A stretch of DNA of 64,000 bases from Escherichia coli (GTDB taxonomy: Bacteria > Pseudomonadota > Gammaproteobacteria > Enterobacterales > Enterobacteriaceae): assembly GCF_044324875.1 (NCBI RefSeq), contig NZ_CP172185.1. The stretch is one strand, 5' to 3'. The translations under genes were made by a program, and so were the position numbers. The notes below the pieces were generated by a model. It worked only from the letters and a program-made list of their open reading frames with translations, did no database searches and was not told the origin of the DNA. Of the stretch, positions 2,664 to 58,973 are shown in pieces; position 1 is the stretch's first letter; each line of letters begins with the position of its first letter.

Positions 2664-3896
2664 TTATGCGACGGGGTCTATTTCCCAGCCAGTGCGGCAA
2701 TCAGTAAAGAGGCCTTGCGGGCAGCGTCCTAATGTCACCCGCGTTGCCTGCTGCCAGTTAGCGAAATCAGTAATCGCCTGACGTAACCCTTTTTGCAGCG
2801 TTGTCGTTGGTTTAATGCCTTCCTGTAACCACAGAGAGATAACTTCAAGGATGCCTGTCTGGCGATGCATTTTGGCATCCATTCGCCCAACTAATTGCCC
2901 ACGATGTAATAACGGCAGAACAAAATAGCCATACTGGCGTTTCGGCGCTGGGGTATAGCACTCCAGCCGGTAGCTAAAATCAAAAAGCTGCTCTGCGCGT
3001 TTACGATCCCAGACAACAGGATCAAAAGGCGAAAGTACCGCGCTGTGCGTTGCAGTGAGCTTTCCGGCCAGCGCACGCTCGAGTAGCGGCAGCAAATCAG
3101 CATGCAGCCAAATATTGCCCAATTTTTCAACATGCACAGCAATGATTTGCCGCTGTTCAGCCCTCGCTTCGCGCCACGCTGCCAGTGCCGGACGTTTCAG
3201 CCGATAGTAATCTGCCAGCCACTGTTCGCGGAATATTCCCAGGCTACGCGCACTGTTATCCAGCATGATGATTTCTGCTTCTGTTTGCGAAACGAGATCG
3301 CGCTCATCATCCCAGTCAGGCATGACACGGTAGGTTAAATCATAAACGCGCTGGAAGTTGCGCCGTTCAATCACCATCACTTTCCCGGCAGTAAATAAAC
3401 CTTCCAGATGCCGTTTATGCGGCTTCCATTCCCACCAGCCGCTTGCACCTTTACGAGGATGCTCAAAATCGGCTGAACGTACCGGCCCCTTATCATGAAT
3501 ATGCTGAATTAACTGTGCAATTTCCGCCTCATGTTCCTGCATCCAGGCGTCATTGTATTTCCAGCCCATTTTTTCAGGTGCCAGCATGCGGTGGCGAATA
3601 AGACGAAAGTCGCTACGCGGCATAAAGCAGGCTTCATGCGCCCAGTATTCCATTAATTCGCCACGCGCCAGAGACTCATCCAGCCACTGGGCAGGATAAT
3701 TTCCCAGACGACTGAAAAGCACCAGATATGGACTACGGGCAACAATATTAATGGTATCGATTTGCAGCAAGGACATGCGGGAGATCGTTGCCGGAATATC
3801 CTCCAACGATGCTCGACGGCGGGGTTTGTTTAACAGGCCTTGCGCGGCGAGGTGAAGATTACGCGCATCAGCAAGAGAGAGGTGCGGCAGCGACAT
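2664..3896 (-). CDS. ycaQ: Winged-helix DNA-binding protein YcaQ (410 aa)
   Basis: 410-aa ORF in conserved position between lpxK and ycaR. Confidence 0.9.
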   Translation of the reverse strand: MSLPHLSLADARNLHLAAQGLLNKPRRRASLEDIPATISRMSLLQIDTINIVARSPYLVLFSRLGNYPAQWLDESLARGELMEYWAHEACFMPRSDFRLIRHRMLAPEKMGWKYNDAWMQEHEAEIAQLIQHIHDKGPVRSADFEHPRKGASGWWEWKPHKRHLEGLFTAGKVMVIERRNFQRVYDLTYRVMPDWDDERDLVSQTEAEIIMLDNSARSLGIFREQWLADYYRLKRPALAAWREARAEQRQIIAVHVEKLGNIWLHADLLPLLERALAGKLTATHSAVLSPFDPVVWDRKRAEQLFDFSYRLECYTPAPKRQYGYFVLPLLHRGQLVGRMDAKMHRQTGILEVISLWLQEGIKPTTTLQKGLRQAITDFANWQQATRVTLGRCPQGLFTDCRTGWEIDPVA

Positions 3897-6700: not shown

Positions 6701-8965
6701 CTACCCGTTATCCACTGGCACGCCAAACCACTGATGATACCAACGAGGTAAAATTTGCTCCCTGAGGCTGCTAATCCGCCAGCCTTGCGCTGAAAAATTG
6801 ACCGTTATTTGCCCCTGATGAGGAGTATCAAGCCACTTATAACCCTGTTGTTGATAGCGATGTTTAACTTTGCTTGAGGGCAGTCGCCATGCGTTATAGC
6901 GCGATGCCGATGCGAGTGCCACTTTTCCATTCACTCGCTGAATTAATGGCAACGATGATGAGGTATTACTGCCATGGTGAGGTATCTGAAGTAATGTTGC
7001 CTGCATTTGCTGCCAGTAACGGCTTAGCATCTTTTGTTCAGCGGGGGCTTCAATATCACCGGTTAGAAGAATGCTATTCGTCCCGTCATCAACCTTAACC
7101 ACACAGGAATGGTTATTTCCTTTATCGTTGCTACCTTGTAAAGGCCAGTGCGCGCTGAAACGCAATCCTTGCCATTGCCACGCTTCGCCACGCACACAGG
7201 GCTGATGATGTTCCCAGTTTAACGGACTTCTGATCCATAACATCGGCCATGTATGCAATATTGAGTCCAGCCCTCCCCGGTGATCCAGATGTTCATGACT
7301 CAGAATAACGCCTTCCGGTTCAAGATTATGCCAGTGGAGCCAGGGGATAATCAGTTGTTGCCCACTATCTCCTTCAGGCCAGGCCAGTCCCGTGTCATAG
7401 AGAATCGCTTTGCCGTTTCTGGCTATCACCATTGCCAGCCCTTGCCCGACATCAAGCATGTACACTTGCCACTCGTCAGGTCGAGGTTTTTGCCACAGCG
7501 GCCAGCACATCAGCAAGCCTCCAGCCACACACATTGCTGGCAACGTTCGCCAGGCGTTTAATCGCCATACCACCAGTAAGAACCATGGGGAAAATGATAG
7601 CCATTGCCAACGTTCAGCAATGTTGATCCACCCTTCCGGCAAACTCTTTAACCCCCAGAAAAGTAAAGCCAAAGACCGGTCGGCAAGAAAGCATAACCCC
7701 TGTTCCAGGATTAACGGCCCGCTTAAATGCACAACCATCGCGGCGAGGATTAATGGAACCGTGATAAATGTCACCAGGGGAATTGCAAAAAGATTTGCAA
7801 TAAACGAGGTCAGACTAATGCCATGAAATATGACGATTTGCACGGGCATAAGCAGGAGTGTGATTCCCAGTTGCAGATGGATGAGGGAAACAACCGCACG
7901 CAATACCGGCGGCAGCTGCCACTCAGGACAGGGAAACCACTGATACCAAAAAATCAGTGCCGCGACCGCAGCGGCAGAGAGCCATAAACTTTGCGAGAGA
8001 ATGGCAACAGGATCCATCAGCAAAATTGCCGCCAGACAACATATCCACACATCCCAGCCACTCCATTGTCGCCCACTTAACTTAAGCATTCCCCACATGG
8101 CAAGCGCCACCACGGTACGCAATGCAGGAGGTTGCATCCCAGTCAGCCAGGCATAAAAAGCAGCACAGCAGATTCCGCCAATTAATGGCATTTGCCAGTG
8201 GATCCAGCGCCCAGGCAGAAAAACTTGCCCACCGCGAATGAGTCCGGCAGCCAGCAACGCCGCAAAAGCGATATGCAATCCCGATATCGCCATTAAATGC
8301 GCCGTTCCAGTATCGCGCATGATATTTTTGATTTCTTTGGGAACGGATAACCGTTCCCCCATACCTAAACCAAGAATAACCGCATTCCACGGATAGGGTT
8401 GCAGCGTTGTTTGTAATGACGCCAGATACTGTGCACGCAAGCTACAATTCGGTTCAATGACACTTGCCTGCAGAAAGCGGCCGGTCAGCGGCTGATGCTG
8501 GGCAATGGCATAACGCTGGCTATCAAAGCTGCCATCATTAAGTTGGCCATGAACTGCACGAACTTTGAGTTTCATTGACCATAGTTGTCCGGCACAAACC
8601 GCTTGCGGGAGATATTCACCATACAGCACGAGGCCTGGCGCAGGGAATATACGTCGACCTTGTAGATGAGTGATTTGACCGTAATGAGTGGTCATGCCGT
8701 CAGTAGCAGTGATCTCAACTATTGCATCCTGCGTCGCGCCAGTTAAGGTTTCTCCTGCCCACAAAATTTGCTTTGCCGCTGATATGCCCCAAAGAAAAAA
8801 CAGCAACGTCAGCGCGATATAACGGACGGCTTTAACAGGAATAAATGCCAGTACGCAGGCGAAGACAGTCAGAAACGCAAGGGTTAATGTCCCAGGCAAT
8901 TGGGGCAAAACCAGCAACGGAAAAATTCCGCAAATTATGCATACGCCGACTGTCGTTATTTTCAT
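6701..8965 (-). CDS. ycaI: ComEC/Rec2-family inner membrane protein YcaI
   Basis: Start chosen at internal ATG (MKITTVG) preceded by GGGAGGGG SD; ~754 aa polytopic membrane protein with C-terminal metallo-beta-lactamase-like HxHxDH. Confidence 0.88.
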   Translation of the reverse strand: MKITTVGVCIICGIFPLLVLPQLPGTLTLAFLTVFACVLAFIPVKAVRYIALTLLFFLWGISAAKQILWAGETLTGATQDAIVEITATDGMTTHYGQITHLQGRRIFPAPGLVLYGEYLPQAVCAGQLWSMKLKVRAVHGQLNDGSFDSQRYAIAQHQPLTGRFLQASVIEPNCSLRAQYLASLQTTLQPYPWNAVILGLGMGERLSVPKEIKNIMRDTGTAHLMAISGLHIAFAALLAAGLIRGGQVFLPGRWIHWQMPLIGGICCAAFYAWLTGMQPPALRTVVALAMWGMLKLSGRQWSGWDVWICCLAAILLMDPVAILSQSLWLSAAAVAALIFWYQWFPCPEWQLPPVLRAVVSLIHLQLGITLLLMPVQIVIFHGISLTSFIANLFAIPLVTFITVPLILAAMVVHLSGPLILEQGLCFLADRSLALLFWGLKSLPEGWINIAERWQWLSFSPWFLLVVWRLNAWRTLPAMCVAGGLLMCWPLWQKPRPDEWQVYMLDVGQGLAMVIARNGKAILYDTGLAWPEGDSGQQLIIPWLHWHNLEPEGVILSHEHLDHRGGLDSILHTWPMLWIRSPLNWEHHQPCVRGEAWQWQGLRFSAHWPLQGSNDKGNNHSCVVKVDDGTNSILLTGDIEAPAEQKMLSRYWQQMQATLLQIPHHGSNTSSSLPLIQRVNGKVALASASRYNAWRLPSSKVKHRYQQQGYKWLDTPHQGQITVNFSAQGWRISSLREQILPRWYHQWFGVPVDNG

Positions 8966-28412: not shown

Positions 28413-30857
28413 TTACACCTTTTCAACCTGAACAAGGTTTGTATGTGACGGATTCCCCTTAGCGAGAGGAGACGGACGTTGAGTGGTCAGTACATTGATA
28501 CAACCGCCCTTATCGACACGTTTTGCATCCGGGTCATACCAGGCACCTTCACCCAGTGCGACCACACCCGGCATCATTCGTGGCGTCACTTTCGCCTCAA
28601 TATGAACCTCACCACGATCGTTAAAGATCCTGACTTTATCGCCGTTGTTGATACCGCGTTTTTGCGCATCAAGCGGGTTGATCCACATTTCCTGACGGCA
28701 AGCCGCTTTCAGCACATCAACGTTGCCGTAAGTTGAGTGAACGCGAGATTTATAGTGGAAACCCGTAAGCTGCAGCGGATATTGTTTGTTCAGCGGATCC
28801 TGATAACTTTCAAAGCCCGGCGTATAGATCGGCAGTGGATCGATCACATCGCCTTCTGGCAATTCCCAAGTCGCGGCAATGTCAGCCAGCGCCTGCGAAT
28901 AAATCTCAATTTTACCCGATGGCGTGGTCAGTGGATTTGCCTGAGGATCTTCACGGAAAGCTTTATAAGCAACGTGGTGCCCTTGTGGGTCGCGCTTTTT
29001 AAAGATCCCCTGCTTGCGGAACTCTTCAAACGTTGGCAGTTCAGGAATCGCTTCCCGCGACTGGGCATACAGATGCCGCATCCACTCTTCCTGTGTACGG
29101 CCTTCAGTAAACTGTTGCTCAACGCCAAGACGTTTTGCCAGTTCGCTGGTCATTTCATAGATGGTCTTACATTCAAAGCGCGGTTTAATCACCTGATCGT
29201 TGAAAATCACGTAAGACATATTCCCGCAGGATGCATCCAGTGCAAAGTCCATCTGTTCGGAAGCGGTGCAGTCAGGCAGCAGGATGTCAGCATATTTCGC
29301 TGATGAGGTCATGTGGCAGTCGATAACCACAATCAGCTCGCACTTCTTATCATCCTGAAGGATTTCATGGGTACGGTTGATTTCAGAATGCTGGTTAATC
29401 AGGCAGTTACCGGCATAGTTCCAGATCATTTTGATCGGCACATCCAGCTTATCTTTCCCGCGCACACCATCACGCAGCGCTGTCATTTCCGGGCCACGTT
29501 CAATGGCATCGGTCCACATAAACATCGAAATGCTGGTCTGGATCGGGTTTTCGAGGGTCGGCATACGGACAAACGGTAAGCTGTATGAACCTTCACGCGC
29601 GCCGCTGTTGCCTCCGTTAATACCAACGTTACCGGTCAGAATCGCCAGCATCGAGATAGCACGGGTTGCGATTTCACCGTTAGCGTGACGCTGCGGGCCC
29701 CATCCCTGGCTGATAAACGCCGGTTTGGTACTACCGATTTCACGAGCCAATTTGATGATTTTGTCTGCCGGAACACCGGTGATTTGCGAGGCCCATTCCG
29801 GCGTTTTAGCCACGCCATCTGGCCCTTCACCCAGAATATAAGCTTTATAGTGACCATTTTTCGGCGCACTGGCTGGCAGTGTTTTCTCGTCGTAGCCAAC
29901 GCAATATTTATCGAGGAATGCCTGATCCACCAGGTTTTCGGTGATCATGACATACGCCAGACCGTTAACCAGTGCGGCATCTGTTCCTGGACGAATAGGG
30001 ATCCACTCATCTTCGCGCCCGGCACCGGTGTCGGTATAGCGCGGATCGATGATGATCATGCGGGCATTAGATTTCTGACGCGCCTGTTCAAGATAGTAAG
30101 TCACCCCACCGCCACTCATTCGCGTTTCGCCAGGGTTATTACCAAACAGCACTACCAGCTTACTGTTTTCGATATCCGACGGGCTGTTACCATCTGCCCA
30201 GCCGCCATAGGTATAGTTCAAACCTTCCGCAATTTGCGCGGAAGAGTAGTCACCGTAATGGTTCAGATAACCGCCGCAGCAGTTCATCAGGCGAGCGACC
30301 AGGGTATTTCCCGGCGGCCAGGAGCGGGTCATGGTGCCGCCCAGCGTACCGGTACCATAGTTCAGATAGATAGACTCGTTGCCGTACTCTTTGATCAGGC
30401 GCTGCATATTGGTCGCGATGATGTCGTAGGCTTCTTCCCAGCTAATGCGCTCGAATTTGCCTTCACCGCGCGCCCCGACTCGTTTCATCGGATATTTCAG
30501 GCGGTCCGGATTGTAGACACGGCGACGCATGGAACGCCCACGCAGACAGGCGCGCACCTGGTGCAGGCCGTCATAGTTGTCATCGCCGGTATTATCCGTT
30601 TCAACATATTTAATTTCACCGTCCACAACGTGCATACGTAGCGGGCAGCGACTACCACAGTTAACTGTACAGGCGCTCCAGATAACCTTTTCGTCTGATT
30701 TTGCCGGAAGGGCACTATCAACAGCGTGCGCAATCCGACTAAAAGGTAATGTTAACGCGCTGCTTGCCATTGCCAGGCCGCCGATCGCTGTCGTTTTTAC
30801 CAAACCACGGCGACTCACCTCAGCAGCCAATACCGCATCAGGGATTTTCGTTTTCAT
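28413..30857 (-). CDS. dmsA: DMSO reductase molybdopterin catalytic subunit (Tat signal)
   Basis: 814-aa ORF with twin-arginine leader (SRRGLVKTTAIGGLAMA). Confidence 0.97.
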   Translation of the reverse strand: MKTKIPDAVLAAEVSRRGLVKTTAIGGLAMASSALTLPFSRIAHAVDSALPAKSDEKVIWSACTVNCGSRCPLRMHVVDGEIKYVETDNTGDDNYDGLHQVRACLRGRSMRRRVYNPDRLKYPMKRVGARGEGKFERISWEEAYDIIATNMQRLIKEYGNESIYLNYGTGTLGGTMTRSWPPGNTLVARLMNCCGGYLNHYGDYSSAQIAEGLNYTYGGWADGNSPSDIENSKLVVLFGNNPGETRMSGGGVTYYLEQARQKSNARMIIIDPRYTDTGAGREDEWIPIRPGTDAALVNGLAYVMITENLVDQAFLDKYCVGYDEKTLPASAPKNGHYKAYILGEGPDGVAKTPEWASQITGVPADKIIKLAREIGSTKPAFISQGWGPQRHANGEIATRAISMLAILTGNVGINGGNSGAREGSYSLPFVRMPTLENPIQTSISMFMWTDAIERGPEMTALRDGVRGKDKLDVPIKMIWNYAGNCLINQHSEINRTHEILQDDKKCELIVVIDCHMTSSAKYADILLPDCTASEQMDFALDASCGNMSYVIFNDQVIKPRFECKTIYEMTSELAKRLGVEQQFTEGRTQEEWMRHLYAQSREAIPELPTFEEFRKQGIFKKRDPQGHHVAYKAFREDPQANPLTTPSGKIEIYSQALADIAATWELPEGDVIDPLPIYTPGFESYQDPLNKQYPLQLTGFHYKSRVHSTYGNVDVLKAACRQEMWINPLDAQKRGINNGDKVRIFNDRGEVHIEAKVTPRMMPGVVALGEGAWYDPDAKRVDKGGCINVLTTQRPSPLAKGNPSHTNLVQVEKV

Positions 30858-31027
30858 AATGGCTCACTCAAGCTTGCTCACGATTGATTCCAGTAACAAA
30901 CCGTATTGTGTAATTATTTCTATAGCAGTTCGCTATATAGGCTTGTATACATCGAATAATTTGAAAATCAAAGAGATAGGTAGATTTTCACTCGAAAGTA
31001 GTATTACGTGTAAGTGAGGAGTAATTA

Positions 31028-31041
31028 TTGTTCGGTATCAA
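31028..31041 (-). promoter_or_regulatory. FNR binding site of dmsA promoter
   Basis: Minus strand reads TTGATACCGAACAA (TTGAT-N4-AACAA) about 170 nt upstream of dmsA ATG. Confidence 0.7.
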
Positions 31042-31153
31042 AGGGAGACAAAAAAAGCGCCCGCAGGAGATTTAACGGTACTTACTCCTCTTGCTGATTT
31101 CCTTATTTTTCAATAAGTAAACAAAAACAAGGGGAGCAAATTATCACAAATAA

Positions 31154-32158
31154 TTACTGGTCGATGGACAGTTTATGGACACTTTCAGCCAGCGGATTAA
31201 AGCTGATCGCATCCTGTAAAAAGTCCGGTGAAAAATGCGCATACGTCATCGTTTGCTGAATCGTGGCGTGACCCAGGATCCTCTGCAACGTGACGATGTT
31301 CCCGCCGTTCATCATGAAATGCGTGGCGAACGTGTGCCGCATGACATGCGTGGCCTGCCCTTTGGGTAAGTCGGGCTTCACCTCCTGAAGGATCTCCCTG
31401 AAACTGAGATAATCAACCTGATATAACAGGCCGGTCCGGCGGGTTTTAATTAACGGCACAACGGAATCAGCTACAGGAACCGAGCGCGATTTCCCGTTCT
31501 TTGTGTTAAAGAACGTCACCCTGTTACCCACGATGTGTTCCCCGCGAAGCGTTGACGCCTCTTTCCATCTGGCCCCGGTCGAAAGGCACAGAATGGCAAT
31601 GCGTCGTGCATCACCCTCAAGCCGTTTCAGAAGGCGATCAATCTCGTCATCTGAAAGAAAGGCCATTTCTGTATTCTGAACCTTGAGTTTACGTATTCCG
31701 CGCACAGGGTTTTCGTTATGATAAACCTCCGCGTCAATTAACAACGAAAACATCGCAGATAAGGCGCACAGGTCGCGATTGATACTGGACGGCATCAGTC
31801 CCGCCTGCAACTTATCCGAGCGATACTCAATCACGAATTTTCGTGTCATCTGGCTGGCGCGCGGGTCCCCCATTTCACGTATCACCTTCTCCAGTCTGGT
31901 TCTGTAGGTATCACCATATGCCTGATTACGACCATCAAGCATCCACCACACCTCAATCAGTTCTGATAACCGCCGTTGATCGGCGGGCCTTGCCTGCCAC
32001 GGGTTATTGTGGAAATTCTGAAGAACGTATCTTTCGAATTCCTGCGCCTTTGATTTCAGGGTGAAAATCTTACGAATCCGCCTTCCTCCCGCCCCCTGAG
32101 GCCTTACATCAACCTGATAACGTCCGTCTTTGAGTTGCTTAATCGACATGATCAGCAC
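31154..32158 (-). CDS. int: Phage tyrosine integrase (P2 Int-like)
   Basis: 334 aa; conserved ILCLSTGARW...ATHVMRHTFATHFMMNGG...LQRILGH...YAHF (R, H-x-x-R, Y catalytic residues). Confidence 0.93.
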   Translation of the reverse strand: MLIMSIKQLKDGRYQVDVRPQGAGGRRIRKIFTLKSKAQEFERYVLQNFHNNPWQARPADQRRLSELIEVWWMLDGRNQAYGDTYRTRLEKVIREMGDPRASQMTRKFVIEYRSDKLQAGLMPSSINRDLCALSAMFSLLIDAEVYHNENPVRGIRKLKVQNTEMAFLSDDEIDRLLKRLEGDARRIAILCLSTGARWKEASTLRGEHIVGNRVTFFNTKNGKSRSVPVADSVVPLIKTRRTGLLYQVDYLSFREILQEVKPDLPKGQATHVMRHTFATHFMMNGGNIVTLQRILGHATIQQTMTYAHFSPDFLQDAISFNPLAESVHKLSIDQ

Positions 32159-32218
32159 CTCCGACGGATAAACCTGTTAACCCCTGCTTACTGAACGCCG
32201 CCCGTTCAATATACAGCG

Positions 32219-32560
32219 TCAGCCAGCATTGCGGCCTGATTGGGGTGATTTTTGGGTATTGCGGGTTGAAACCTGATCGTCCTCCGACTGCGTGGAGCCA
32301 TCAAGAGAGAGAGCCGGGGCGATCTGACCGGCAACAGGTAGCGTCTTATCTTTGATTAGCCAGAACATATATTTTTCAAACCGATCCACTTGAAGGACGG
32401 CCTCAACAATCTTTGCTCTGGCGATCTTTTGCCCTGACTCATAATTCCTGACAGTTGCCAGAGATAACCCTGTAATATCAGCAAATTGCTTTTGAGTTAG
32501 CCCTTCCGTCTTGCGTATCAAACGCAACTTTTTCGCATAGTCTATTGACAAGATACTCAT
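32219..32560 (-). CDS. Phage immunity repressor (P2 C-like, XRE-type HTH)
   Basis: 113 aa; HTH LTQKQFADITGLSLATVRNYESG; position between int and divergent early operon. Confidence 0.8.
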   Translation of the reverse strand: MSILSIDYAKKLRLIRKTEGLTQKQFADITGLSLATVRNYESGQKIARAKIVEAVLQVDRFEKYMFWLIKDKTLPVAGQIAPALSLDGSTQSEDDQVSTRNTQKSPQSGRNAG

Positions 32561-32663
32561 TTGGGGATTAATCTCCTACAAAAGATAACCGTACGATTAT
32601 CTTTACAAGTCATCAAAAATCATCAAAAGGCGCAACAAGCGCACCAATGCAAGAGGATAACAA

Positions 32664-33185
32664 ATGCGGGAGATTATTGCCGACAAAGAGTTATCTGGCG
32701 CTCAACCGGTTCAGGATGATGGCGCGGACAATGAATTCATTGAAGCTGCCAACGACAACGAACACCTGGAAACCAAAACCAGACCGTCCTACAAAAAGGG
32801 CGCAACCCTACGACTGGACGGCCCAGTCGCAGGACTTGTGTCACTGGAAAAAGGGGCTGCCTATCTGGGGGTAACAAAATCTGCGCTACGCGCCGCCATT
32901 CAGCGCGGGCAGATGCCGGGTCACAAAACGCGCTCAAATCCCGAAGATGAAAAGTCAGACGGTACATGGTGGTTTAACGCCAAAGCCTGGGACGAACTAG
33001 CCGACGAACTACTGGAGTGCGAACCGCCAGAGTGGCACAACTGGAAAAGCTACTGGACGTACGACCGCAAGAAAAGAAAGTTTTCACCGGCAAACAAGGA
33101 GGACTGCCAGACCGTTAAAGGTAAGCAGGTTTACTCCCCCAGAGTTTCAAAACTGGAGCAACTCAAAAACAACCAGCCCGGCTAA
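32664..33185 (+). CDS. Cox/excisionase-like early protein (173 aa)
   Basis: AGAGGA SD 7 nt upstream; central HTH-like AYLGVTKSALRAAIQRGQMP; first gene of rightward early operon. Confidence 0.55.
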   Translation: MREIIADKELSGAQPVQDDGADNEFIEAANDNEHLETKTRPSYKKGATLRLDGPVAGLVSLEKGAAYLGVTKSALRAAIQRGQMPGHKTRSNPEDEKSDGTWWFNAKAWDELADELLECEPPEWHNWKSYWTYDRKKRKFSPANKEDCQTVKGKQVYSPRVSKLEQLKNNQPG

Positions 33186-33193
33186 ACACGAAA

Positions 33194-33400
33194 ATGACCA
33201 GCAATATCATCAATGCCGTTTTGAACATTATATTCCTGGAATTAGGCGTAGTAGTGATTTATCTGCTTGGCAAGCTAACAGGACAAAAAGAACGTTTTAT
33301 TGTCCTCAACGTTCATTACGTCGCAGCTTATTCTAAAGGGCTTTTTCCAATAGTTGTTGGCGCGGGACTTACAGCGTTTGTCATCTGGCTCATCAGGTAG
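33194..33400 (+). CDS. Small hydrophobic protein (68 aa, two predicted TM segments)
   Basis: ORF directly following cox-like gene; weak RBS. Confidence 0.4.
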   Translation: MTSNIINAVLNIIFLELGVVVIYLLGKLTGQKERFIVLNVHYVAAYSKGLFPIVVGAGLTAFVIWLIR

Positions 33401-33682
33401 AGGCACACAACGTAATCATTCGTAGCTATATTTCCGCAATAGTATTCAAGTAAAGGAAGACAACAACATGAAACCAAGACAAAGATTAACCTCCAGAAGT
33501 AGTGACGCATTGCACTTTAAAGCAAAAGACATAATAGCCACAACAAAGGTAGGAGCATAAGTCTATATACACTTTCAGAATTTCTATCTGGAGAGAACAT
33601 TAAAAACGGAAGAGGAAGCCAATGAGTATTTGTTATTCATGAAAGATTGCATAGAAGGAAAAATAAGCGCAGGAGATAAATA

Positions 33683-33991
33683 ATGCGAAAACATTATTCA
33701 CAGCCACATTTCCGCAACAGTGCACCACGCAGCAATAACCGCTGGAGCCTGCGCGAAACACACGCAACGCCGGGCGGTCATGCTGTAAAACAGACTGGTC
33801 AACACACCTGGCTGATTGAGCAGGCCGGACTCGTGATCCACAGATGCCACCGCAATCCGTTTACCGGAAACCGCATTTTTGCACTGAGCAGCGGCGACAA
33901 TCAGTTCGGACAGGATTTCACACTGCACGAAGCCTTGCGAACTGCCGACCGCTTAATCGAGGGGCGCAGCTTTCAGCATACCGACTACTAA
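33683..33991 (+). CDS. Hypothetical phage early protein (102 aa)
   Basis: AGGAG SD upstream of ATG. Confidence 0.45.
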   Translation: MRKHYSQPHFRNSAPRSNNRWSLRETHATPGGHAVKQTGQHTWLIEQAGLVIHRCHRNPFTGNRIFALSSGDNQFGQDFTLHEALRTADRLIEGRSFQHTDY

Positions 33992-40479: not shown

Positions 40480-40670
40480 GCAGAATATTACTTTTTCTGC
40501 TGTTTTTCGCGCCATTCGCACAATCAGCCACGCCGAACTGCGTAGCGAAAAAGAGCAACACCGTTGTCATTGTCCAGTGTGATGACGGCACGGTAACAAT
40601 CACCGACTCGAGCAAAGGAAGCGTCATTGTCTGCCGTAAAGAGAAACCCTGTCAGCGAACCGAACTTTGA
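40476..40670 (+). CDS. Small putative secreted Cys-containing protein (64 aa, GTG start)
   Basis: N-terminal signal-peptide-like SRILLFLLFFAPFAQSA; overlaps previous stop. Confidence 0.4.
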   Translation: MSRILLFLLFFAPFAQSATPNCVAKKSNTVVIVQCDDGTVTITDSSKGSVIVCRKEKPCQRTEL

Positions 40671-40681
40671 AGGAAAAATAT

Positions 40682-40761
40682 ATGAACAGGAAACAGAAGC
40701 AGGAACTGAAAGGCTTCTTACGTAAAGAAATTGCCAGGCTGGAAGATGTGGAATCTCAGTC
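40682..40761 (+). pseudogene. 5' fragment of small phage gene interrupted by IS21-family element
   Basis: MNRKQKQELKGFLRKEIARLEDVESQS... continues in frame at 43407 once the IS and one copy of the target duplication are removed. Confidence 0.8.
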
Positions 40762-40860
40762 TGCGTATTCCGCTCTATTCGATCACGGATTGGCATCGAA
40801 GTCCGATCAGCGATTCGCATCCATTCGATCAACCGGGAACTTAACTTTTTCTACCGCTTT

Positions 40861-41616
40861 TTAACGCGTTTTTTCGCTGCTTTCCACTACCGGGGGATTT
40901 TTCCTCAGTGACTCTCCCTGAAGGACCACTCGGTGTGAGTTATGTACCAGTCTGTCCAGGATGGCATCTGCTGTTGTTGGGTTCTCCATCAGACCATGCC
41001 ATTTATCTACCGGGAACTGGCTTACCACTATCGTGCTGCTTTGTCCGTAACGATCCTCTATGAGCTCCAGAAGGTCATTACACTGGGCGTTACTTAACTG
41101 TTCCAGCCCCAGATCGTCCAGGATTAGAACCTGTATTTTTTGCAACTGTTTCAGATATTTCAGCCAGCTGCCATCAACACGTCCCTGAGCCAGTTGTTCC
41201 AGTAATCGCCCGGTTCTACAGTACCGGACGCTGTGTTTCTGTCGACATGCCTGTTCGCCCAGCGCATTGGCTATCCAGCTCTTGCCACATCCTGTCGGAC
41301 CGGTTATCAGCAGGTTTTTCCTGTGGGTTATGTAGTGGCCGTTCAGCAGTTCTCTCATCTGTTCAGCCCGCAGACCTCTTGAGGCCGGATAGCGCAGCCC
41401 TTCCGGTGTTGCCTGGTATTTCAGGCCGGCATTTTTTCTCAACCGTGCCACACGGCTGTTTTCCCTGCTCAGAAGCTCGTCATCAACCAGCAGCGTCAGC
41501 CTTTCCTCGAACGACAGTTCGTCGTAGGTCTGAGGCGTTTCCCGCTGCCGTATCAGGCTCCCGGCCATCGCCGGGAGTTTCAGTTGGGTCAGTTTGTTTA
41601 ACAGGTTATCACTCAT
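40861..41616 (-). CDS. istB: IS21-family helper ATPase IstB
   Basis: Start MSDNLLNKL; Walker A GPTGCGKS; 251 aa. Confidence 0.93.
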   Translation of the reverse strand: MSDNLLNKLTQLKLPAMAGSLIRQRETPQTYDELSFEERLTLLVDDELLSRENSRVARLRKNAGLKYQATPEGLRYPASRGLRAEQMRELLNGHYITHRKNLLITGPTGCGKSWIANALGEQACRQKHSVRYCRTGRLLEQLAQGRVDGSWLKYLKQLQKIQVLILDDLGLEQLSNAQCNDLLELIEDRYGQSSTIVVSQFPVDKWHGLMENPTTADAILDRLVHNSHRVVLQGESLRKNPPVVESSEKTR

Positions 41617-41632
41617 ACTGTTGTTCCTTCTG

Positions 41633-43168
41633 TCAGTGGTAGTAGCCCGGACCACGCAGGTTTTCATGCTCTGAAGCATATGCCGGATGTTGTTCGCCCT
41701 GGCGGGATAATGGAAGCTCCAGGTTCTCCCGATGGTGACGCAGCAGATTGTCGATAAAGCGTCTGTCAGGGGCGTTATAGTGCAGGGCAACGTAACAGGC
41801 CTTTTCCAGCCGTTCCGGGCCGTATTTTTTCTGAAGTGCCAGCAGCCCCAGAACTGCACGATAAGCCAGTTCCGGATGGGGTTTTGCCTTCAGCATGGAT
41901 TCAACCACCCGGCCTGTGGACGGGCCCGTACGTTTTCCCTGCTCGATCAGGCGTTCCGGTGTCCATGTCCCGTGCTGCCGGTGGCGCTCTGGCATGTGAA
42001 GCGGATTGGTTGTGTGTTTATATTCATGTGTGCTGCGCGGATGTTGCGCCACACACTGCCCCTTGTGCCAGAGCTGTACCACCGACTGCCCCGCCTTCAG
42101 TGACAGACGCTGACCGACCAGTTCGTGTGGAACGGAGTACCAGTGACGGGCATATTCAACGTGGTAGTCAGGGCCAACCTTCACAGCTTTGTATTCCGTG
42201 TATTCATAAGGTGCCAGAGGCAGCGGAGAGAGTGCTGGCGCATCCAGTATGCGGAAGCGTTCTGCACGGGTTTGATTGCCGTACCCCTTCATTGGCCGGT
42301 TATTCATGTCTGTCAGTAACTCCCTAAGGCGCGCATTCAGCGCCCTGAGCGTGTGGAAGGTTTCATTACGGATGCGGGCAAGAAGCCATCGTTCAACGAT
42401 GAGGACGCCGTTTTCTGCTTTTGGTTTATCTTTAGGTTTGCGTGGTCGGGCCGGGATGATAACCGTGCCATAGTGCTCAGCCAGTGCCTGATAACTGTCG
42501 TTGATGACAGGCTCATATCGATCGGCCTTTTTCACTGCGCTTCTGAGGTTATCGGGGATGAGCAGCTTCGGTACGCCGCCCAGGAAGGTCAGGCAACGGC
42601 TGTGGGCATTTAACCATGACATCATGTCCTGACCTTCGCACGCTTCAACGTAGGTATAGTTGGACGCCCCCATTACGGCCACGAAGATTGCCACGCGGCG
42701 TATCTCACCGGTGTCCGGATTAATAACAGGAACCGTAGGACCACAGAAGTCGATAAAAAGCTTTTCGCCGGCACGATGCTCCTGGCGCATGGAGAGACGT
42801 CGCGTTTTTTTCCACTCCCGGTAGCAACGGCAGAAGTGCGAGTATCCCATCGCTTTGTTACCCGCCTGTGCCTTGTATTCCATCCACAACAGTTGCCGCG
42901 TCACACCTGGTTTTCTCATTTCCGTATCGAAGTACAACATGTCAGGCATTACAAGCTCTGATGCAAAGGTGTCTTTGGGCGGAAAAATGAGTTTCTCCAG
43001 CGTGTCATGGGATATATCAGCAGGTAATGGCCATGACAGAGAAGAGGCTTTGAAGCGGGCAAGAACCTCAAAAACGGTTGAGGCGCTGATGTGTAACGTC
43101 AGTCCGATACAACGGTTAGTCAGCTTCTTGTCGAACTTGAGCTGAAGGATCTTAAAACAGGTTTCCAT
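41633..43168 (-). CDS. istA: IS21-family transposase IstA
   Basis: Start METCFKILQ with AGGAG SD; DDE integrase core region; 511 aa. Confidence 0.92.
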   Translation of the reverse strand: METCFKILQLKFDKKLTNRCIGLTLHISASTVFEVLARFKASSLSWPLPADISHDTLEKLIFPPKDTFASELVMPDMLYFDTEMRKPGVTRQLLWMEYKAQAGNKAMGYSHFCRCYREWKKTRRLSMRQEHRAGEKLFIDFCGPTVPVINPDTGEIRRVAIFVAVMGASNYTYVEACEGQDMMSWLNAHSRCLTFLGGVPKLLIPDNLRSAVKKADRYEPVINDSYQALAEHYGTVIIPARPRKPKDKPKAENGVLIVERWLLARIRNETFHTLRALNARLRELLTDMNNRPMKGYGNQTRAERFRILDAPALSPLPLAPYEYTEYKAVKVGPDYHVEYARHWYSVPHELVGQRLSLKAGQSVVQLWHKGQCVAQHPRSTHEYKHTTNPLHMPERHRQHGTWTPERLIEQGKRTGPSTGRVVESMLKAKPHPELAYRAVLGLLALQKKYGPERLEKACYVALHYNAPDRRFIDNLLRHHRENLELPLSRQGEQHPAYASEHENLRGPGYYH

Positions 43169-43406
43169 AGTGCTCCTGGATTTTCTCTTTCTGGACATTG
43201 ACGTCTCCACTGGTTTAAACACGGCAATGGAGACTGTGGTGAAAAGAGTTAATTCCCGGAGTGACTGGCAGGATGCCAATCAATGATCGGAAGCATGCCA
43301 AATCGTGATCGATTGTGATGCCAAACTGTGATCGGAGATGGATGCCAAATCATGATCGATTCGAATGCCAAACTGCGATCGATTCAGATGCCATTTTGCA
43401 TCAGTC

Positions 43407-50279: not shown

Positions 50280-51062
50280 ATGCTGACACCGGCACAGGCT
50301 CATTTCCAGCGCGTGATGGCTTTACGGGCAGGAACGGCAGCAGAAAACGAGGATATCGTGGCCCGCACGGCTCATGAGCAGGTCCTTCACCGTCTGCGCC
50401 TGGCACAGCAACGCATAAAGGGCGTCCAGGCAAAAGCGGCAAAGGCCGCGCTCAAGCGTGAAATGCTGCCGGGTTTTGCAGGCTGGATAGACGGCACGCT
50501 GGAAGCCGACGGCGGACAGCAGGATGAGGTGATAGCCACACTCATGGTGTGGGCCGTGGACTGTGGCGACCTGGCGCTTGCACTGCGCATCGGGGATTAT
50601 GTGGTTCGCCACAACCTCACGATGCCTGACAACTTCGGGCGTACGGCAGCCACGGTACTGACCGAGGAAATCTGCAACCCTGTTCTGACACAGGCCGGAA
50701 CGGATGCACACGCCGATTTGTCCGGCTACATCGAACCGCTGGACACCCTCTGGCAAATTGTCGCGAACCGGGACATGCCCGATGAGGTCCGCGCCAAGCT
50801 GTGCAAGGCATGCGCCTTTGCCCGTCGTGGCCTGACCGATGCCGACAGCATGGCGGTGAGTCTGAAGCTGTTCCGTGAGGCAATGCACCTTAACCCGAAT
50901 GCGGGGGTAAAACGTGAGATTGCCACGCTTTCACGGGCCCTGAAAAAGGCCGGACAGGATGAAGCCGCTGCCGCACAGGAGCCTGCGGCACAGAAAGATA
51001 CAACCAGAGAACAGACCACGACGCCGAAGGCGAAAGCGAAAGCGAAGGCGAAACGTGGTTAA
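50280..51062 (+). CDS. Terminase small/endonuclease subunit (P2 gpM-like)
   Basis: 260 aa; DMPDEVRAKL motif; C-terminal Lys/Ala repeats. Confidence 0.88.
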   Translation: MLTPAQAHFQRVMALRAGTAAENEDIVARTAHEQVLHRLRLAQQRIKGVQAKAAKAALKREMLPGFAGWIDGTLEADGGQQDEVIATLMVWAVDCGDLALALRIGDYVVRHNLTMPDNFGRTAATVLTEEICNPVLTQAGTDAHADLSGYIEPLDTLWQIVANRDMPDEVRAKLCKACAFARRGLTDADSMAVSLKLFREAMHLNPNAGVKREIATLSRALKKAGQDEAAAAQEPAAQKDTTREQTTTPKAKAKAKAKRG

Positions 51063-51164
51063 CGGCTGACCCCGTCAGAAGGCGGCGTGCCGGGCGTTCC
51101 GGTTACGGTTTTCCGTTCCCCTTACACCCGGCACCCACCGCTTTTTTTTCTGAAGGAGCGATTT

Positions 51165-51659
51165 ATGAGCATGGTCGCAAGACCGGAAGCCGCCCCTGCG
51201 CGGGACGACATCACCGACACCGACGACGGCGACGCCACCATCACCGCCGGGGCATTCTGGCCGGAGATTGTGCTGCGGGAGCTGCGCCTTGCAGTACGCC
51301 TGCCGGGCCGCATCACCTCCACACGTCTGGCGCACGTTGCCACGGGAGCCGTGGCTCACGTCACGCGGGAGCTGGAAGAGTGGCAGAAGGCGCAGTCTGC
51401 CGCAGGGTTCAGCATCCTCGCAGAAGTGCCTGCCGCCACCATCAACGGTGAGAGCGTCAACGTATGGCATTACCGCAACGCCGTCTACAGCGCCACCCGC
51501 GCCCTGATTCTGGAACGCTGGCGGGATGTGGACACCACTGATAAAGGGGACCGCCGGGCTGACGCACTGGATGAGCAGATGGAAGACTTATGGCGCGATG
51601 TGCGCTGGTCCGTGGCAGATATTCTGGGTCGCCCCCGTCTTTTTGCGGAGCTGGTGTGA
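51165..51659 (+). CDS. Head completion/stabilisation protein (P2 gpL-like)
   Basis: Start at ATG with AAGGAG SD; 164 aa. Confidence 0.85.
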   Translation: MSMVARPEAAPARDDITDTDDGDATITAGAFWPEIVLRELRLAVRLPGRITSTRLAHVATGAVAHVTRELEEWQKAQSAAGFSILAEVPAATINGESVNVWHYRNAVYSATRALILERWRDVDTTDKGDRRADALDEQMEDLWRDVRWSVADILGRPRLFAELV

Positions 51660-51856
51660 TGAAAGTGAGGGCACTCCAGGGGGATACCGTCGATTTACTC
51701 TGTTTCCGGCACTACGGCACCACGCAGGGGGTGACCGCACAGGTACTTGATGCCAATCCAGGGCTCTGCCGCCAGGTAATTCTGGAAGCGGGACAGGAGG
51801 TGGAGATGCCGGAGCCGGAAAGGAAACAGCAACGCGAAAAGGTAAAGCTATGGTGA
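51659..51856 (+). CDS. Tail protein X-like small protein (65 aa)
   Basis: ATG overlapping gpL stop; position equivalent to P2 X. Confidence 0.7.
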   Translation: MKVRALQGDTVDLLCFRHYGTTQGVTAQVLDANPGLCRQVILEAGQEVEMPEPERKQQREKVKLW

Positions 51857-52140
51857 CGGGATTTTTTCAGCGCGTCAGTGACTGGATCACCTTCTGGGCG
51901 TCAGTGACGGCAACAACCATTGGTGTTATGACCATCAGCGAAAAAATTGCGCTGGCCGGGCTGCTTCTGGGGTCACTTTCCGCCATCCATGCCTGGTGCC
52001 ACCGCAGGCGTACGGAGCAGGCAATGAAGCGCCGCAATGACCTTATCGCCCGCATCCTGGCACGTTCAGAAAACCGCGAGCTTCACGACGGTGAGAGACG
52101 GGCACTGGACAGCGTGAGACAGGACGGAGAAGAGCGGTGA
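51850..52140 (+). CDS. Holin (two TM segments, 96 aa)
   Basis: Membrane protein directly upstream of endolysin, overlapping starts/stops. Confidence 0.7.
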   Translation: MVTGFFQRVSDWITFWASVTATTIGVMTISEKIALAGLLLGSLSAIHAWCHRRRTEQAMKRRNDLIARILARSENRELHDGERRALDSVRQDGEER

Positions 52141-52682
52141 AACTGCCGGTAAAACGTTATGCGGTGGCGGCCATTGTGGCGCTGGGCGTCTCCATGGCAC
52201 CCGGTGAACTGAGAACCTCACGGGAAGCACAGATAAAAATCGCCACCCGGGAAGAGTGCCGGGCGACACCGTACCGTGATATTGCAGGAGTAATGACCGT
52301 GGGATGTGGTTCAACAGGGGGCGTGGAGAACCGGGTTTACGGAGAAAAGGAGGTGGCCCGCCGCTGGGTGAATGACCTGCGGCACGCGGAAAACTGTATC
52401 AACCAGAACTTCAGCGGTGCCGCCATGCCCCAGTCCGCCTTTGAGGCGATGACCGACGCGGCGTTCAACGTCGGCTGTACCGGCCTGATGTGGTACCGGG
52501 ACAGGAGCGGCAACCGGCAGCGCACCACCATCTGGAAGCACGCACAGGCGCACCGCTGGGTGGCGATGTGCGGGAGACTGACCGATTTTGTCAACAGTGG
52601 CGGACGCCGCTCACAGGGGCTGGTTAACCGCCGGGAGGAGTTCAGACAGTGGTGTCTTCGCGACACGGGAGGCAGCACATGA
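52137..52682 (+). CDS. SAR-type endolysin (T4-lysozyme-like GH24 with N-terminal signal-anchor-release segment)
   Basis: N-terminal YAVAAIVALGVSMAPG; catalytic spacing E-x8-D-x5-T (EECRATPYRDIAGVMT). Confidence 0.82.
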   Translation: MKLPVKRYAVAAIVALGVSMAPGELRTSREAQIKIATREECRATPYRDIAGVMTVGCGSTGGVENRVYGEKEVARRWVNDLRHAENCINQNFSGAAMPQSAFEAMTDAAFNVGCTGLMWYRDRSGNRQRTTIWKHAQAHRWVAMCGRLTDFVNSGGRRSQGLVNRREEFRQWCLRDTGGST

Positions 52683-53086
52683 GACCGGTTTACGCCGTGA
52701 TTGTTGCCCTCATGGTGACCACCCTGACGGCGGCGGCCATGTGGCAGTCATACCGGCTGGGGCGTGCCGGTGAGGCACGTGACGCCGCAGAGCAGCAGCT
52801 GGGCGAATACAGCCGGGCGCTGCGTGAGTCCTCCGCCGTTATCAGCGATGCCTCCGCCGTACTGCATGAGGTGATGACGCAGCGACAGAAAAGGGCACAG
52901 GAAGGAGAAGTCAGACGTGAACAGCTTCGCGAAATTGCTGCGACGGATGAGTGCGCCGGCACTCTTCCTGACCACCGTTTTACTGACCGGCTGCGCGAAC
53001 ACACGGAACGCGCCACTGCCCGCGCCCTCCTTCCGGTTCATTCCGGCGGGACTGACGACGGGAACACGGCCCCCGCCCTTCCCTGA
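52679..53086 (+). CDS. i-spanin (LysB/Rz-like)
   Basis: Start MRPVYAVIVALMVTTLTAAAM (N-terminal TM), coiled-coil-like remainder. Confidence 0.7.
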   Translation: MRPVYAVIVALMVTTLTAAAMWQSYRLGRAGEARDAAEQQLGEYSRALRESSAVISDASAVLHEVMTQRQKRAQEGEVRREQLREIAATDECAGTLPDHRFTDRLREHTERATARALLPVHSGGTDDGNTAPALP

Positions 53087-53231
53087 ACACCCCACATGGG
53101 GAAATATCGGGATATGGAGCGACAGCCTCCTGGATGCACTGGAAACCTGCAACGCAGACAAACAGGCCATTGAGGCGCTGGAGCGCCGGAGACTCAACCG
53201 ACAGAACGGAGGGGGACATGCTGAAAAGTAA
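52917..53231 (+). CDS. o-spanin lipoprotein (LysC/Rz1-like), embedded/overlapping with i-spanin in alternate frame
   Basis: GTG start with AAGGAGAAG SD; lipobox LLTGC; Pro-rich mature region. Confidence 0.6.
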   Translation: MNSFAKLLRRMSAPALFLTTVLLTGCANTRNAPLPAPSFRFIPAGLTTGTRPPPFPEHPTWGNIGIWSDSLLDALETCNADKQAIEALERRRLNRQNGGGHAEK

Positions 53232-53682
53232 ATCCCTGAGCACACACATGAGTACAGCGTGCCGGTGGTGCAGGGCCAACCCGGAAAAGTTCACCGTGTT
53301 CATTGAACGTGGCGGGATAGAGACCACCGGCGAGACGCCGACGTTCGTGTACAACTACCGGCTGGTGATGTTCGTGATGGACTACACGGGCGATCTGGAC
53401 AACCTGACGCTTCCACTGATTGTCTGGCTGGCAGAGAACCAGCCGCAGTTGCTGCTTAATCCTGAGCGCAACAACGATATTCAGTTCACGGCGGCCATTA
53501 ACGACGACGACAGCGCGGACGTGCTGTTTGAGCTGCCGTTACGTGAACGCGTGCGCGTCACCCGCAGGGATGACGGCACCCTCATGACAGAACATCTACC
53601 GGAGCCGAAATCACGCATCCCGCAGGACGGCGACTGGTCACACATTCTGGAGGATGTGACGTGGAACATTGTCACCGGATAA
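53218..53682 (+). CDS. Tail completion protein (P2 gpR-like)
   Basis: Start ATG with GGAGGGGGA SD; 154 aa. Confidence 0.8.
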   Translation: MLKSKSLSTHMSTACRWCRANPEKFTVFIERGGIETTGETPTFVYNYRLVMFVMDYTGDLDNLTLPLIVWLAENQPQLLLNPERNNDIQFTAAINDDDSADVLFELPLRERVRVTRRDDGTLMTEHLPEPKSRIPQDGDWSHILEDVTWNIVTG

Positions 53683-56738: not shown

Positions 56739-58973
56739 ATGAGCACGAGAAAATTCAGAACCCTTATCACCGACATCGGGCTGGCAAAGCTGGCCGCAAC
56801 AACGGCGCCTGGCGGTAGACCTGTACGCCTTACGCACATGGCTGTAGGGGACGGCAATGGAGAGCTTCGTCAGCCGCAGAAAAACCAGACATCGCTTTAC
56901 AATGAGGTTTGGCGCCAGTCTGTCAACCGCGTCTTCACCGACCCGGAGAACCCGAACCGCCTCATCGCCGAACTGGTCATTCCTCCTGAAACCGGCGGAT
57001 TCTGGGTGCGTGAAATTGGTGTGTTTGATGATACAGGTACAATGATTGCAGTAGGAAATACCGCTGAAAGTTACAAGCCCACCAGAGAGGAAGGTTCAGG
57101 GCGGGCGCAGATATTCCGTGCAGTAATCACCGTCACCTCCGACGCCGTGGTGGAACTGGTCATGGACACAACAACAATTCTGCCGACCACGGACTACATT
57201 GATGAGAAAATGGCGGAACACGCACGTTCCCGTAACCACCCTGACGCGACACTGACAGAAAAAGGATTCACCCAACTGAGCAGCGCCACAAACAGCACCT
57301 CTGAAACACTGGCCGCCACACCGAAGGCCGTCAAGGCTGCATATGACCTTGCAGCCGGTAAAGCACCCGCCAGCCACACCCACCCGTGGAATCAGATAAC
57401 TGGTGTGCCATCAGCCTCGCTGACGGCAAAAGGCACCGTACAGCTGAGCAGTGCCACAAACAGTGAGTCAGAGACTGAGGCGGCCACCCCCAAAGCGGTT
57501 AAAGCCTTACACGATATGGTGACGAGCAAGTATACAGGACAGGATGCAACCACCGGACGCAAAGGCATCGTACAGCTGAGCAGCGCCACAAACAGCAATT
57601 CCGAAACACTGGCGGCCACACCGAAGGCAGTAAGTGATGCACTGAGCATGGCGTTCGTGAAGCCAACAACATCCCTGGGGGAAACAGACCTGAACACTCT
57701 GGGGCGTAAGGAAGACGCGGGAGATTATTACCAGCAGAGTGACTCAGGTGCGAGAACAGACAGAAACTATCCTGTAGAGAAGGCAGGAGAGTTACGCATC
57801 CGTGTTGGTGCATGGGGATTCTGCCAGCATGAATACACGAGCTGGGATCCGCCACGAAAATTTATCAGGACAGTTACCGGAAACTTTAACGGTAACGGCC
57901 CATGGTCAGAGTGGGTGGAGGTGACAAACACAGATGCAACAACTGGACGCAAAGGCATCGTACAGCTGAGCAGCGATACAAACAGCAATTCCGAAACGCT
58001 GGCGGCCACACCAAGAGCCGTCAAGGCTGCATATGACCTTGCAGCCGGTAAAGCACCCGCCAGCCACACCCACCCGTGGAATCAGATAACAGGTGTGCCA
58101 TCAGCCTCGCTGACGGCAAAAGGCACCGTACAGCTGAGCAGTGCCACAAACAGTGAGTCAGAGACTGAGGCCGCCACCCCCAAAGCGGTTAAAGCCTTAC
58201 ACGATATGCTGACGAGCAAGTATACAGGACAGGATGCAACCACCGGACGCAAAGGCATCGTACAGCTAAGCAGCGCCACAAACAGCAATTCCGAAACGCT
58301 GGCGGCCACACCAAAAGCTGTTAAAGCTGCGTATGACCTTGCCAACAGCAAAGCCTCGGCAGCCCACACTCATCGCTGGGCTCAGATCACAGACGCCCCT
58401 GTTTTTTCGTCTGTTGCCCGCGTCATCATGGGTAAACAAAGCATAAAAGATATTCTTGATTACTTTGGTTTAGGAGAAGGCTCGACGCTGCCAGTTGGCG
58501 TACCCGTTCCGTGGCCTTCGTCAAGACCACCTGAGGGGTGGTTACAGTGCAACGGTGCCGCATTCACGCGTACAAAATACCCAAAACTGGCGGTGGCCTA
58601 CCCTGACCTCAGGCTACCAGATTTGCGCGGGGAATTTATTCGTGGATGGGATGACCTGCGAATGATTGACAGGGGACGCTTATTGTTATCCACACAGGAA
58701 GCAACATATATTTGTACCGCCATACAGGCGTACCACGGCGTAGCGGGAGGTGCAGATATTCAGGCAGGGATTTCATTTGCATCACATGATAACGACATCA
58801 TAAACATAACCCCTGATCAACCCAGAACCGGTAACGGCATCCTGTACGGCACAAAACCAGTTGACAGATGGGCAATAGCCAGAGCCGGTAAGCTGGTGAG
58901 TAATGAAAAAGACAGATGGATAGCGATCAGACCGCGCAATATCGCTTTTAATTATATTGTGAGGGCAGTTTAA
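56739..58973 (+). CDS. Tail fibre protein (P2 gpH-like) with internal repeat array
   Basis: 744 aa; repeated TGRKGIVQLSSATNSNSETLAATPKAVKAAYDLA units; C-terminal receptor-binding region. Confidence 0.9.
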   Translation: MSTRKFRTLITDIGLAKLAATTAPGGRPVRLTHMAVGDGNGELRQPQKNQTSLYNEVWRQSVNRVFTDPENPNRLIAELVIPPETGGFWVREIGVFDDTGTMIAVGNTAESYKPTREEGSGRAQIFRAVITVTSDAVVELVMDTTTILPTTDYIDEKMAEHARSRNHPDATLTEKGFTQLSSATNSTSETLAATPKAVKAAYDLAAGKAPASHTHPWNQITGVPSASLTAKGTVQLSSATNSESETEAATPKAVKALHDMVTSKYTGQDATTGRKGIVQLSSATNSNSETLAATPKAVSDALSMAFVKPTTSLGETDLNTLGRKEDAGDYYQQSDSGARTDRNYPVEKAGELRIRVGAWGFCQHEYTSWDPPRKFIRTVTGNFNGNGPWSEWVEVTNTDATTGRKGIVQLSSDTNSNSETLAATPRAVKAAYDLAAGKAPASHTHPWNQITGVPSASLTAKGTVQLSSATNSESETEAATPKAVKALHDMLTSKYTGQDATTGRKGIVQLSSATNSNSETLAATPKAVKAAYDLANSKASAAHTHRWAQITDAPVFSSVARVIMGKQSIKDILDYFGLGEGSTLPVGVPVPWPSSRPPEGWLQCNGAAFTRTKYPKLAVAYPDLRLPDLRGEFIRGWDDLRMIDRGRLLLSTQEATYICTAIQAYHGVAGGADIQAGISFASHDNDIINITPDQPRTGNGILYGTKPVDRWAIARAGKLVSNEKDRWIAIRPRNIAFNYIVRAV
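57328..57625 (+). repeat. Copy 1 of ~300-bp near-identical direct repeat inside tail-fibre gene
   Basis: Near-identical to 58018-58315 (offset 690 bp) with five single-base differences noted in the aligned core. Confidence 0.8.
58018..58315 (+). repeat. Copy 2 of ~300-bp direct repeat inside tail-fibre gene
   Basis: See copy 1. Confidence 0.8.

Follow-up and report, generated by a model that had tools for sequence, protein, structure and literature searches.

A P2-like prophage lysis cassette of Escherichia coli with a holin, a predicted SAR-type P1 Lyz-like endolysin and a LysB/LysC-type spanin

As a class, SAR endolysins have a weakly hydrophobic N-terminal TMD, rich in G/A/S/T, that signal peptidase leaves uncut; exported through Sec and tethered as inactive enzymes, they are set free on depolarisation and can lyse cells without a holin. 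They have been defined by a catalytic triad near the N-terminus with the pattern Glu-8x-Asp/Cys-5x-Thr (PMC3556154). The prototype is Lyz of phage P1, with structures of the active (PDB 1XJT) and inactive (PDB 1XJU) forms: it represents a subclass characterized by a thiol in the SAR domain and a cysteine at the position of the triad Asp, disulfide-blocked with C44 (PMC3556154, PMC6116005). In phage 21, the gene order is holin, endolysin and i-spanin/o-spanin (Rz/Rz1), the holin (S21) having two transmembrane domains (TMDs) and belonging to PF04971. In pinholins of this family, TMD1 is weakly hydrophobic and can leave the membrane, and the holes are small, on the nm scale. The activation of its endolysin, R21, is conformational. 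In phage P2, the lysis genes (Y-K-lysA-lysB-lysC) are placed between the tail gene X and the tail-completion gene R. Within the Peduoviridae, a class II holin, a SAR endolysin and a spanin pair have been reported for the P2-like E. coli phage Midge (PMC12697156), while the cassette annotated in the Enterobacter phage phiT5282H (Novemvirus) is of the same type, with a class II holin, a SAR-type endolysin and i-/o-spanins. The kind of cassette described below is thus already known in this family, the likeness to Midge being taken from its published description rather than from a sequence comparison.

The window, that is, the whole stretch of DNA that was analysed (64 kb), contains on its plus strand a lysis cassette at positions 51850-53231. 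It consists of four tightly coupled, intact ORFs, established from the ORF list and from reading of the sequence. All four lie where the sequence-only reading of this DNA had placed them, and each has a significant family match. The flanking genes are of P2 type as judged by Pfam, including head completion L (PF05926), tail X (PF05489) and tail completion R (PF06891). The gene order is therefore L-X-[lysis cassette]-R-S, and the slot is that of the P2 late operon, between X and R. The cassette belongs to a P2-like (Peduoviridae, P88/Xuanwuvirus-related) prophage in the E. coli chromosome and is found at an identity of at least 95% in about 25 of 5426 complete E. coli genomes. A megablast search of positions 51600-53300 against the phage collection gave zero matches, so that the cassette is without a close DNA relative among deposited phages. 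The antisense ORFs at 52751-53245(-) and 52340-52678(-), for which Pfam gave no match, were treated as spurious.

Several further features of the prophage were observed. It adjoins dmsA, and genes of the integrase, repressor-like HTH and Cox families are located at 28948-33800 of the window, which stops within the prophage tail genes; the other end of the prophage, as seen in a related E. coli genome, is situated before serS, close to ogr and a Hok/Gef gene. The tail-fibre gene region (57273-58392) contains internal repeats of about 350 bp with 84-96% identity, which appeared as off-diagonal matches to a related prophage. Moreover, positions 40762-43400 correspond to a 2.6-kb insertion relative to the otherwise 99.8% identical prophage of E. 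coli ECCNB12-2. Its minus strand carries two ORFs, one of 548 aa and one of 332 aa, the latter with a GPTGCGKSW P-loop, and the insertion looks like an IS21-family IstA/IstB element, located in the early region of the prophage after the replication gene.

The first gene of the cassette (51850..52140, plus strand, 96 aa), whose ATG overlaps the stop codon of gene X, matches PHROG 1350 ("holin", E 7e-23). Hydropathy analysis gives two hydrophobic segments, residues 12-30 and 33-49, with a class II topology, which agrees with the two-TM holin that had been proposed upstream of the endolysin. The segments are joined by an invariant S-E-K turn, the conserved hairpin obtained from the alignment of relatives being IGVMTISEKIALAGLLLG, and the C-terminal tail is highly charged, both very basic and very acidic. 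In Pfam, the protein has no match above threshold, the HP1 holin family PF16080 scoring 19.8 bits against a cut-off of 28.8. A pinholin by homology (S21 68 family) was considered and rejected, since PF04971 is absent and the profile comparison with the S21 68 pinholin was negative (hhalign probability 1.4%). The only link to pinholins is a weak match to PHROG 20 (E 4.7e-6). In composition, TMD1 has 53% G/A/S/T and a Hessa sum of +3.0, versus +6.4 for TMD1 of S21. The order of the genes and the two-TMD holin are shared with phage 21, whereas the holin itself falls outside the S21 family. It is also unrelated to Y of P2, which belongs to PF04550 and PHROG 175.

The endolysin gene (52137..52682, plus strand, 181 aa) encodes a muramidase of T4/GH24 type in the P1 Lyz lineage. 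The Pfam search suggested earlier for this interval returned PF00959 (E 1.4e-21, 77.6 bits against a cut-off of 22.3), and the protein is in PHROG 7, a family also holding R21 and P1 Lyz. The closest solved relative is P1 Lyz (1XJT; phmmer E 6.9e-36), with 42-45% identity over nearly the full length, N-terminal hydrophobic segment included. The AF2 model of the endolysin (pLDDT 90.7), when compared by Foldseek, superimposes on active P1 Lyz with a TM of 0.84 and an rmsd of 2.4 over 174 columns, again with the N-terminal helix included, versus a TM of 0.58 for the inactive form (1XJU). R21 is distant (phmmer E 1e-4, 28% identity). The earlier suggestion that the enzyme is nearer to the phage 21/P1 class than to the endolysin K of P2 is supported by its PHROG and by the phmmer match to P1 Lyz, the likeness being much closer for P1 Lyz than for R21. 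The possibility that it might be an orthologue of P2 K without a SAR segment was also checked: it is no orthologue of K, since BLASTP gave zero alignment between the two, and P2 K is in PHROG 90. Unlike the P1 lyz gene, the endolysin gene sits here in a P2-type late operon, directly after its own holin.

The catalytic region (52251..52307, plus strand) comprises E39 (52251-53), C41, D48 (52278-80), T54 (52296-98) and C57 (52305-07). The E-x8-D-x5-T spacing which the sequence-only reading had pointed out can be read directly as E39/D48/T54, with the same spacing as in P1 Lyz. The triad aligns to E42/C51/T57 of P1 Lyz, and C41 to its C44; E39 and T54 are invariant across 21 aligned relatives. 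By its sequence, the protein falls into the class of P1 Lyz and R21, its N-terminal segment being hydrophobic.

The putative SAR segment (residues 1-23, 52137..52205, plus strand) is made up of MKLPVKR and YAVAAIVALGVSMAPG, and is followed by an E. Weak hydrophobicity had been noticed here before: the segment has 16 uncharged residues with 50% G/A/S/T, a shorter stretch than those of P1 Lyz (20) and R21 (23), and on the Hessa scale none of the 19-residue windows of the endolysin N-terminus reaches a TMD score. Residues 1-23 are kept as protein in more than 40 cluster representatives (90%-identity clusters), and in the AF2 model the helix 10-20 packs on the body of the enzyme as in active P1 Lyz.

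Two other readings of the N-terminus have to be weighed against its retention as an anchor. If it were a cleavable Sec signal peptide, the enzyme would be a secreted, soluble periplasmic lysozyme of the type of Lys44 from Oenococcus phage fOg44, and indeed the hydrophobic core is so short that it also resembles a classical h-region, K/R residues lie on its N-terminal flank, S19-M20-A21 fits the -3/-1 rule and A21-P22-G23 before E24 is formally permissible. Nevertheless, this is improbable. Pro22, at least 90% conserved, directly follows the only AXA-like site and so occupies +1 of the SMA site, where a proline blocks signal peptidase I. Furthermore, positions 21 and 23 are not kept small in the family (W is found at 21, and at 23 one of E, Q, D and H), the family alignment shows no conserved cleavage motif of the small-x-small kind, and the packing of the helix 10-20 in the model, as in 1XJT, also speaks against removal of the segment. 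Moreover, the residue at position 8 is the SAR cysteine both in P1 Lyz and in the sister clade, and these proteins require the N-terminal Cys in the mature enzyme, since the P1 Lyz mechanism depends on this residue staying attached (PMC3556154, PMC6116005). The second reading, that translation truly starts at M20 (52194) to give a soluble cytoplasmic enzyme of 163 aa needing a large-hole holin, is favoured by the PGAP annotation of E. coli genomes, in which the CDS begins at that ATG. It is nonetheless very improbable: the ATG at 52194 is without a Shine-Dalgarno sequence, while the GTG at 52137, which overlaps the holin stop codon (GTGA), has GGAG 7 nt upstream (52126-52129); codons 1-19 are conserved at the protein level throughout the relatives, and M20 varies (L, I or F in most of them). 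Lysis gene start codons are in fact often miscalled (PMC6139136). Family conservation and the structure model together suggest that the N-terminus is, with high probability, retained as a signal anchor. The term SAR nevertheless makes a functional claim, which is beyond proof by sequence.

The interpretation that we regard as likely for the whole locus is that of a P2-like prophage lysis cassette with a SAR-type, P1-Lyz-like endolysin, a holin and a LysB/LysC-type spanin. The four translationally coupled genes would be expressed late. Sec would export the endolysin, and the uncleaved, weakly hydrophobic N-terminus would tether the inactive enzyme at the periplasmic face of the inner membrane. 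The two-TMD holin would accumulate and trigger, with collapse of the membrane potential, and the SAR segment would then exit the bilayer to fold against the catalytic body, in the way seen in active P1 Lyz. The released endolysin would thus become an active muramidase using E39/D48/T54, after which the LysB/LysC-type spanin complex would remove the outer membrane. Export, tethering and release of the endolysin we infer from its family (PMC6116005, PMC9025707); the order of events and the size of the holin hole are likewise put forward as predictions. Against such a functional cassette, it might be argued that the prophage is defective and the cassette a relic that has lost its role in lysis, because the early region carries the 2.6-kb IS21-family insertion, which a prophage otherwise 99.8% identical lacks, and an IS21-type insertion at this place implies that the phage itself may not be inducible. 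Yet a relic is hard to reconcile with four intact lysis ORFs, with the preserved coupling of starts and stops and with the 99.5-99.6% identity of the region across about 25 E. coli genomes, and we give this possibility very little credence.

As for the regulation of the presumed SAR-type enzyme, the comparison with P1 Lyz focuses attention on its cysteines. Five are shared (C41, C87, C114, C145 and C173), whereas C13 of P1 Lyz is replaced here by Y8 and Cys51 by Asp48, Cys57 being new. In a set of 47 cluster representatives together with P1 Lyz and phiT5282H, three positions of the endolysin, 8, 48 and 57 (52158-52160, 52278-52280 and 52305-52307, plus strand), covary without intermediates. 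The type found in the window, Y8/D48/C57, is present in 16 representatives, and the P1 type, C8/C48 with I, M or L at 57, in about 30, as well as in P1 Lyz and phiT5282H at the equivalent positions; C41 (C44 of P1 Lyz) is invariant in both types. The endolysin of phiT5282H, 69% identical to the one described here, differs precisely in having kept the P1-type cysteines (C8/C48/I57). In a tree built without the three covarying columns, the Y/D/C group forms a single clade nested among P1-type sequences; being monophyletic, it represents one evolutionary event, and the covariation is no statistical evidence of coupling. In this clade the P1 thiol switch was lost (C8 became Y and C48 became D), the canonical Asp was regained and C57 was gained.

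With Y8 and D48, the endolysin lacks the features of the P1 Lyz subclass, which is activated by disulfide isomerisation: as the SAR cysteine is absent and an Asp occupies the triad position, that mechanism is impossible for this enzyme. It has in common with R21 a Cys-free N-terminal segment and the E-x8-D-x5-T triad, and its activation is presumably conformational, as in R21. A more speculative idea is that the Y8/D48/C57 clade constitutes, among the P1-Lyz-like SAR endolysins, a regulatory subclass not described before, in which thiol isomerisation would have been abandoned, the Asp restored, and a putative C41-C57 disulfide would cage or staple the D48/T54 hairpin, replacing the C13-C44 bond of active P1 Lyz; we hold this to be rather unlikely. 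The loss of the cysteine switch inside the P1-Lyz-like clade is in any case a small, testable point for SAR endolysin regulation, and a minor lead.

Downstream of the endolysin, the i-spanin gene (52679..53086, plus strand, 135 aa) matches PHROG 214 ("Rz-like spanin", E 1.3e-25). Its ATG overlaps the endolysin stop codon (ATGA), with GGGAGG at 52667-52672, 6 nt upstream, and the protein has an N-terminal TMD (residues 4-22), as had been anticipated, followed by a helical periplasmic domain. The o-spanin gene (52917..53231, plus strand, 104 aa) is in the +1 frame relative to that of the i-spanin and starts with GTG, preceded by AAGGAG at 52902-52907 with a 9-nt spacer. The product belongs to the LysC family (Pfam PF23793, E 2.1e-13, 50.4 bits against a cut-off of 27) and to PHROG 456, the same as P2 LysC, and its lipobox is L23-T24-G25-C26, with Cys26 at 52992-94. 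The proposal of an out-of-frame lipoprotein with a GTG start and a Shine-Dalgarno sequence is therefore correct. This start yields a basic n-region (K6, R9, R10), while the internal ATG (M11) would give none, and the V-N-S codons at the beginning are conserved in P88.

The sequence-only reading erred, by contrast, in describing the spanin pair as embedded. The o-spanin gene runs 145 nt beyond the i-spanin stop (53231 versus 53086) and overlaps gene R by 14 nt; as it extends past that stop, the architecture is "overlapped" (P2 lysB/lysC type) according to the definitions of "overlapped" and "embedded" in PMC6139136. The features of a two-component overlapped spanin are all present: the TMD of the i-spanin, the lipobox in the other frame and the overrun of the o-spanin. 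In phage 21, on the contrary, the o-spanin gene is embedded (40795-40977 inside 40575-41036). P2 is similar to the present prophage in the X-R slot and in its overlapped spanins, with an o-spanin running into R, but it differs in that its LysB is in PHROG 89, its holin and endolysin come from unrelated families and it has lysA, an equivalent of which is absent here. LysC-type o-spanin ORFs were also observed, unannotated, in phiT5282H (L003 3721-4089) and P88 (L007 about 3330-3640); their lipoboxes are VTAC and LTGC, respectively, and in both phages they overlap and outrun the i-spanin.

At the DNA level, the prophage is nearest to P88-like Xuanwuviruses, with 78% nucleotide identity over the head genes. 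P88 is the closest of them, with 72-78% over the head, X, R, S and baseplate genes. At the protein level, L and X are 77% and R 69% identical to those of P88, whereas the flanking proteins of P2 are only 35-48% identical. A blastn comparison of the window with P88 gave homology at 50280-51839 (74%), then a gap, and again homology from 52898-53664 (72%) onward, the identity on the two sides of the gap being 72-76%. Consistently, the head-gene megablast match to P88-like phages ends at query position 7823, which is window position 51822. In addition to the holin and endolysin genes, the block without DNA homology to P88-like relatives (51840..52897, plus strand) takes in the first 73 codons of the i-spanin gene, its 5' two thirds. 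In P88, the slot is occupied by a lambda-S-type holin (PF05106) and an M15 peptidase endolysin (PF13539). The joint is also visible in the proteins: the i-spanin is 24.7% identical to that of P88 over residues 1-73 and 59.7% over residues 74-135, and the o-spanin is 66% identical to the unannotated one of P88. A joint inside the i-spanin gene means that the C-terminus of the i-spanin remains with its own o-spanin. The GC content gives no mark of the swapped block (0.58-0.65 inside, versus 0.55-0.65 in the flanks). In phiT5282H, identity to the present cassette is 52% for the holin and only 29% for the i-spanin. Modular replacement of the lysis genes, as suggested earlier, thus holds, on the basis of the blastn comparison with P88, for holin and endolysin and for the i-spanin gene in its 5' two thirds, and does not extend to the 3' end of the latter or to the o-spanin; the comparison supports the view that holin and endolysin have been swapped in relative to the closest phage relatives.

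Regarding the public annotation of these genes, RefSeq/PGAP calls the endolysin from M20 (163 aa), dropping the export segment; one RefSeq record calls the i-spanin from M21 ("DUF2570"), dropping the TMD; lysC is called from a CTG at 52968; and the holin is labelled "hypothetical protein", homologues elsewhere being named "phage tail protein". As a consequence of such miscalls, anyone who searches these prophages for lysins would end up cloning a wrong construct. The chief value of the analysis lies in the correction of these annotations, together with a clean example of mosaicism.

The cassette is an ordinary but intact four-gene lysis unit. Phage lysis genes usually evolve by swapping of this kind, and three unrelated holin-endolysin pairs, those of P2, of P88 and of the prophage described here, share one slot, the breakpoints providing a clean example of lysis-module exchange within the Peduoviridae.
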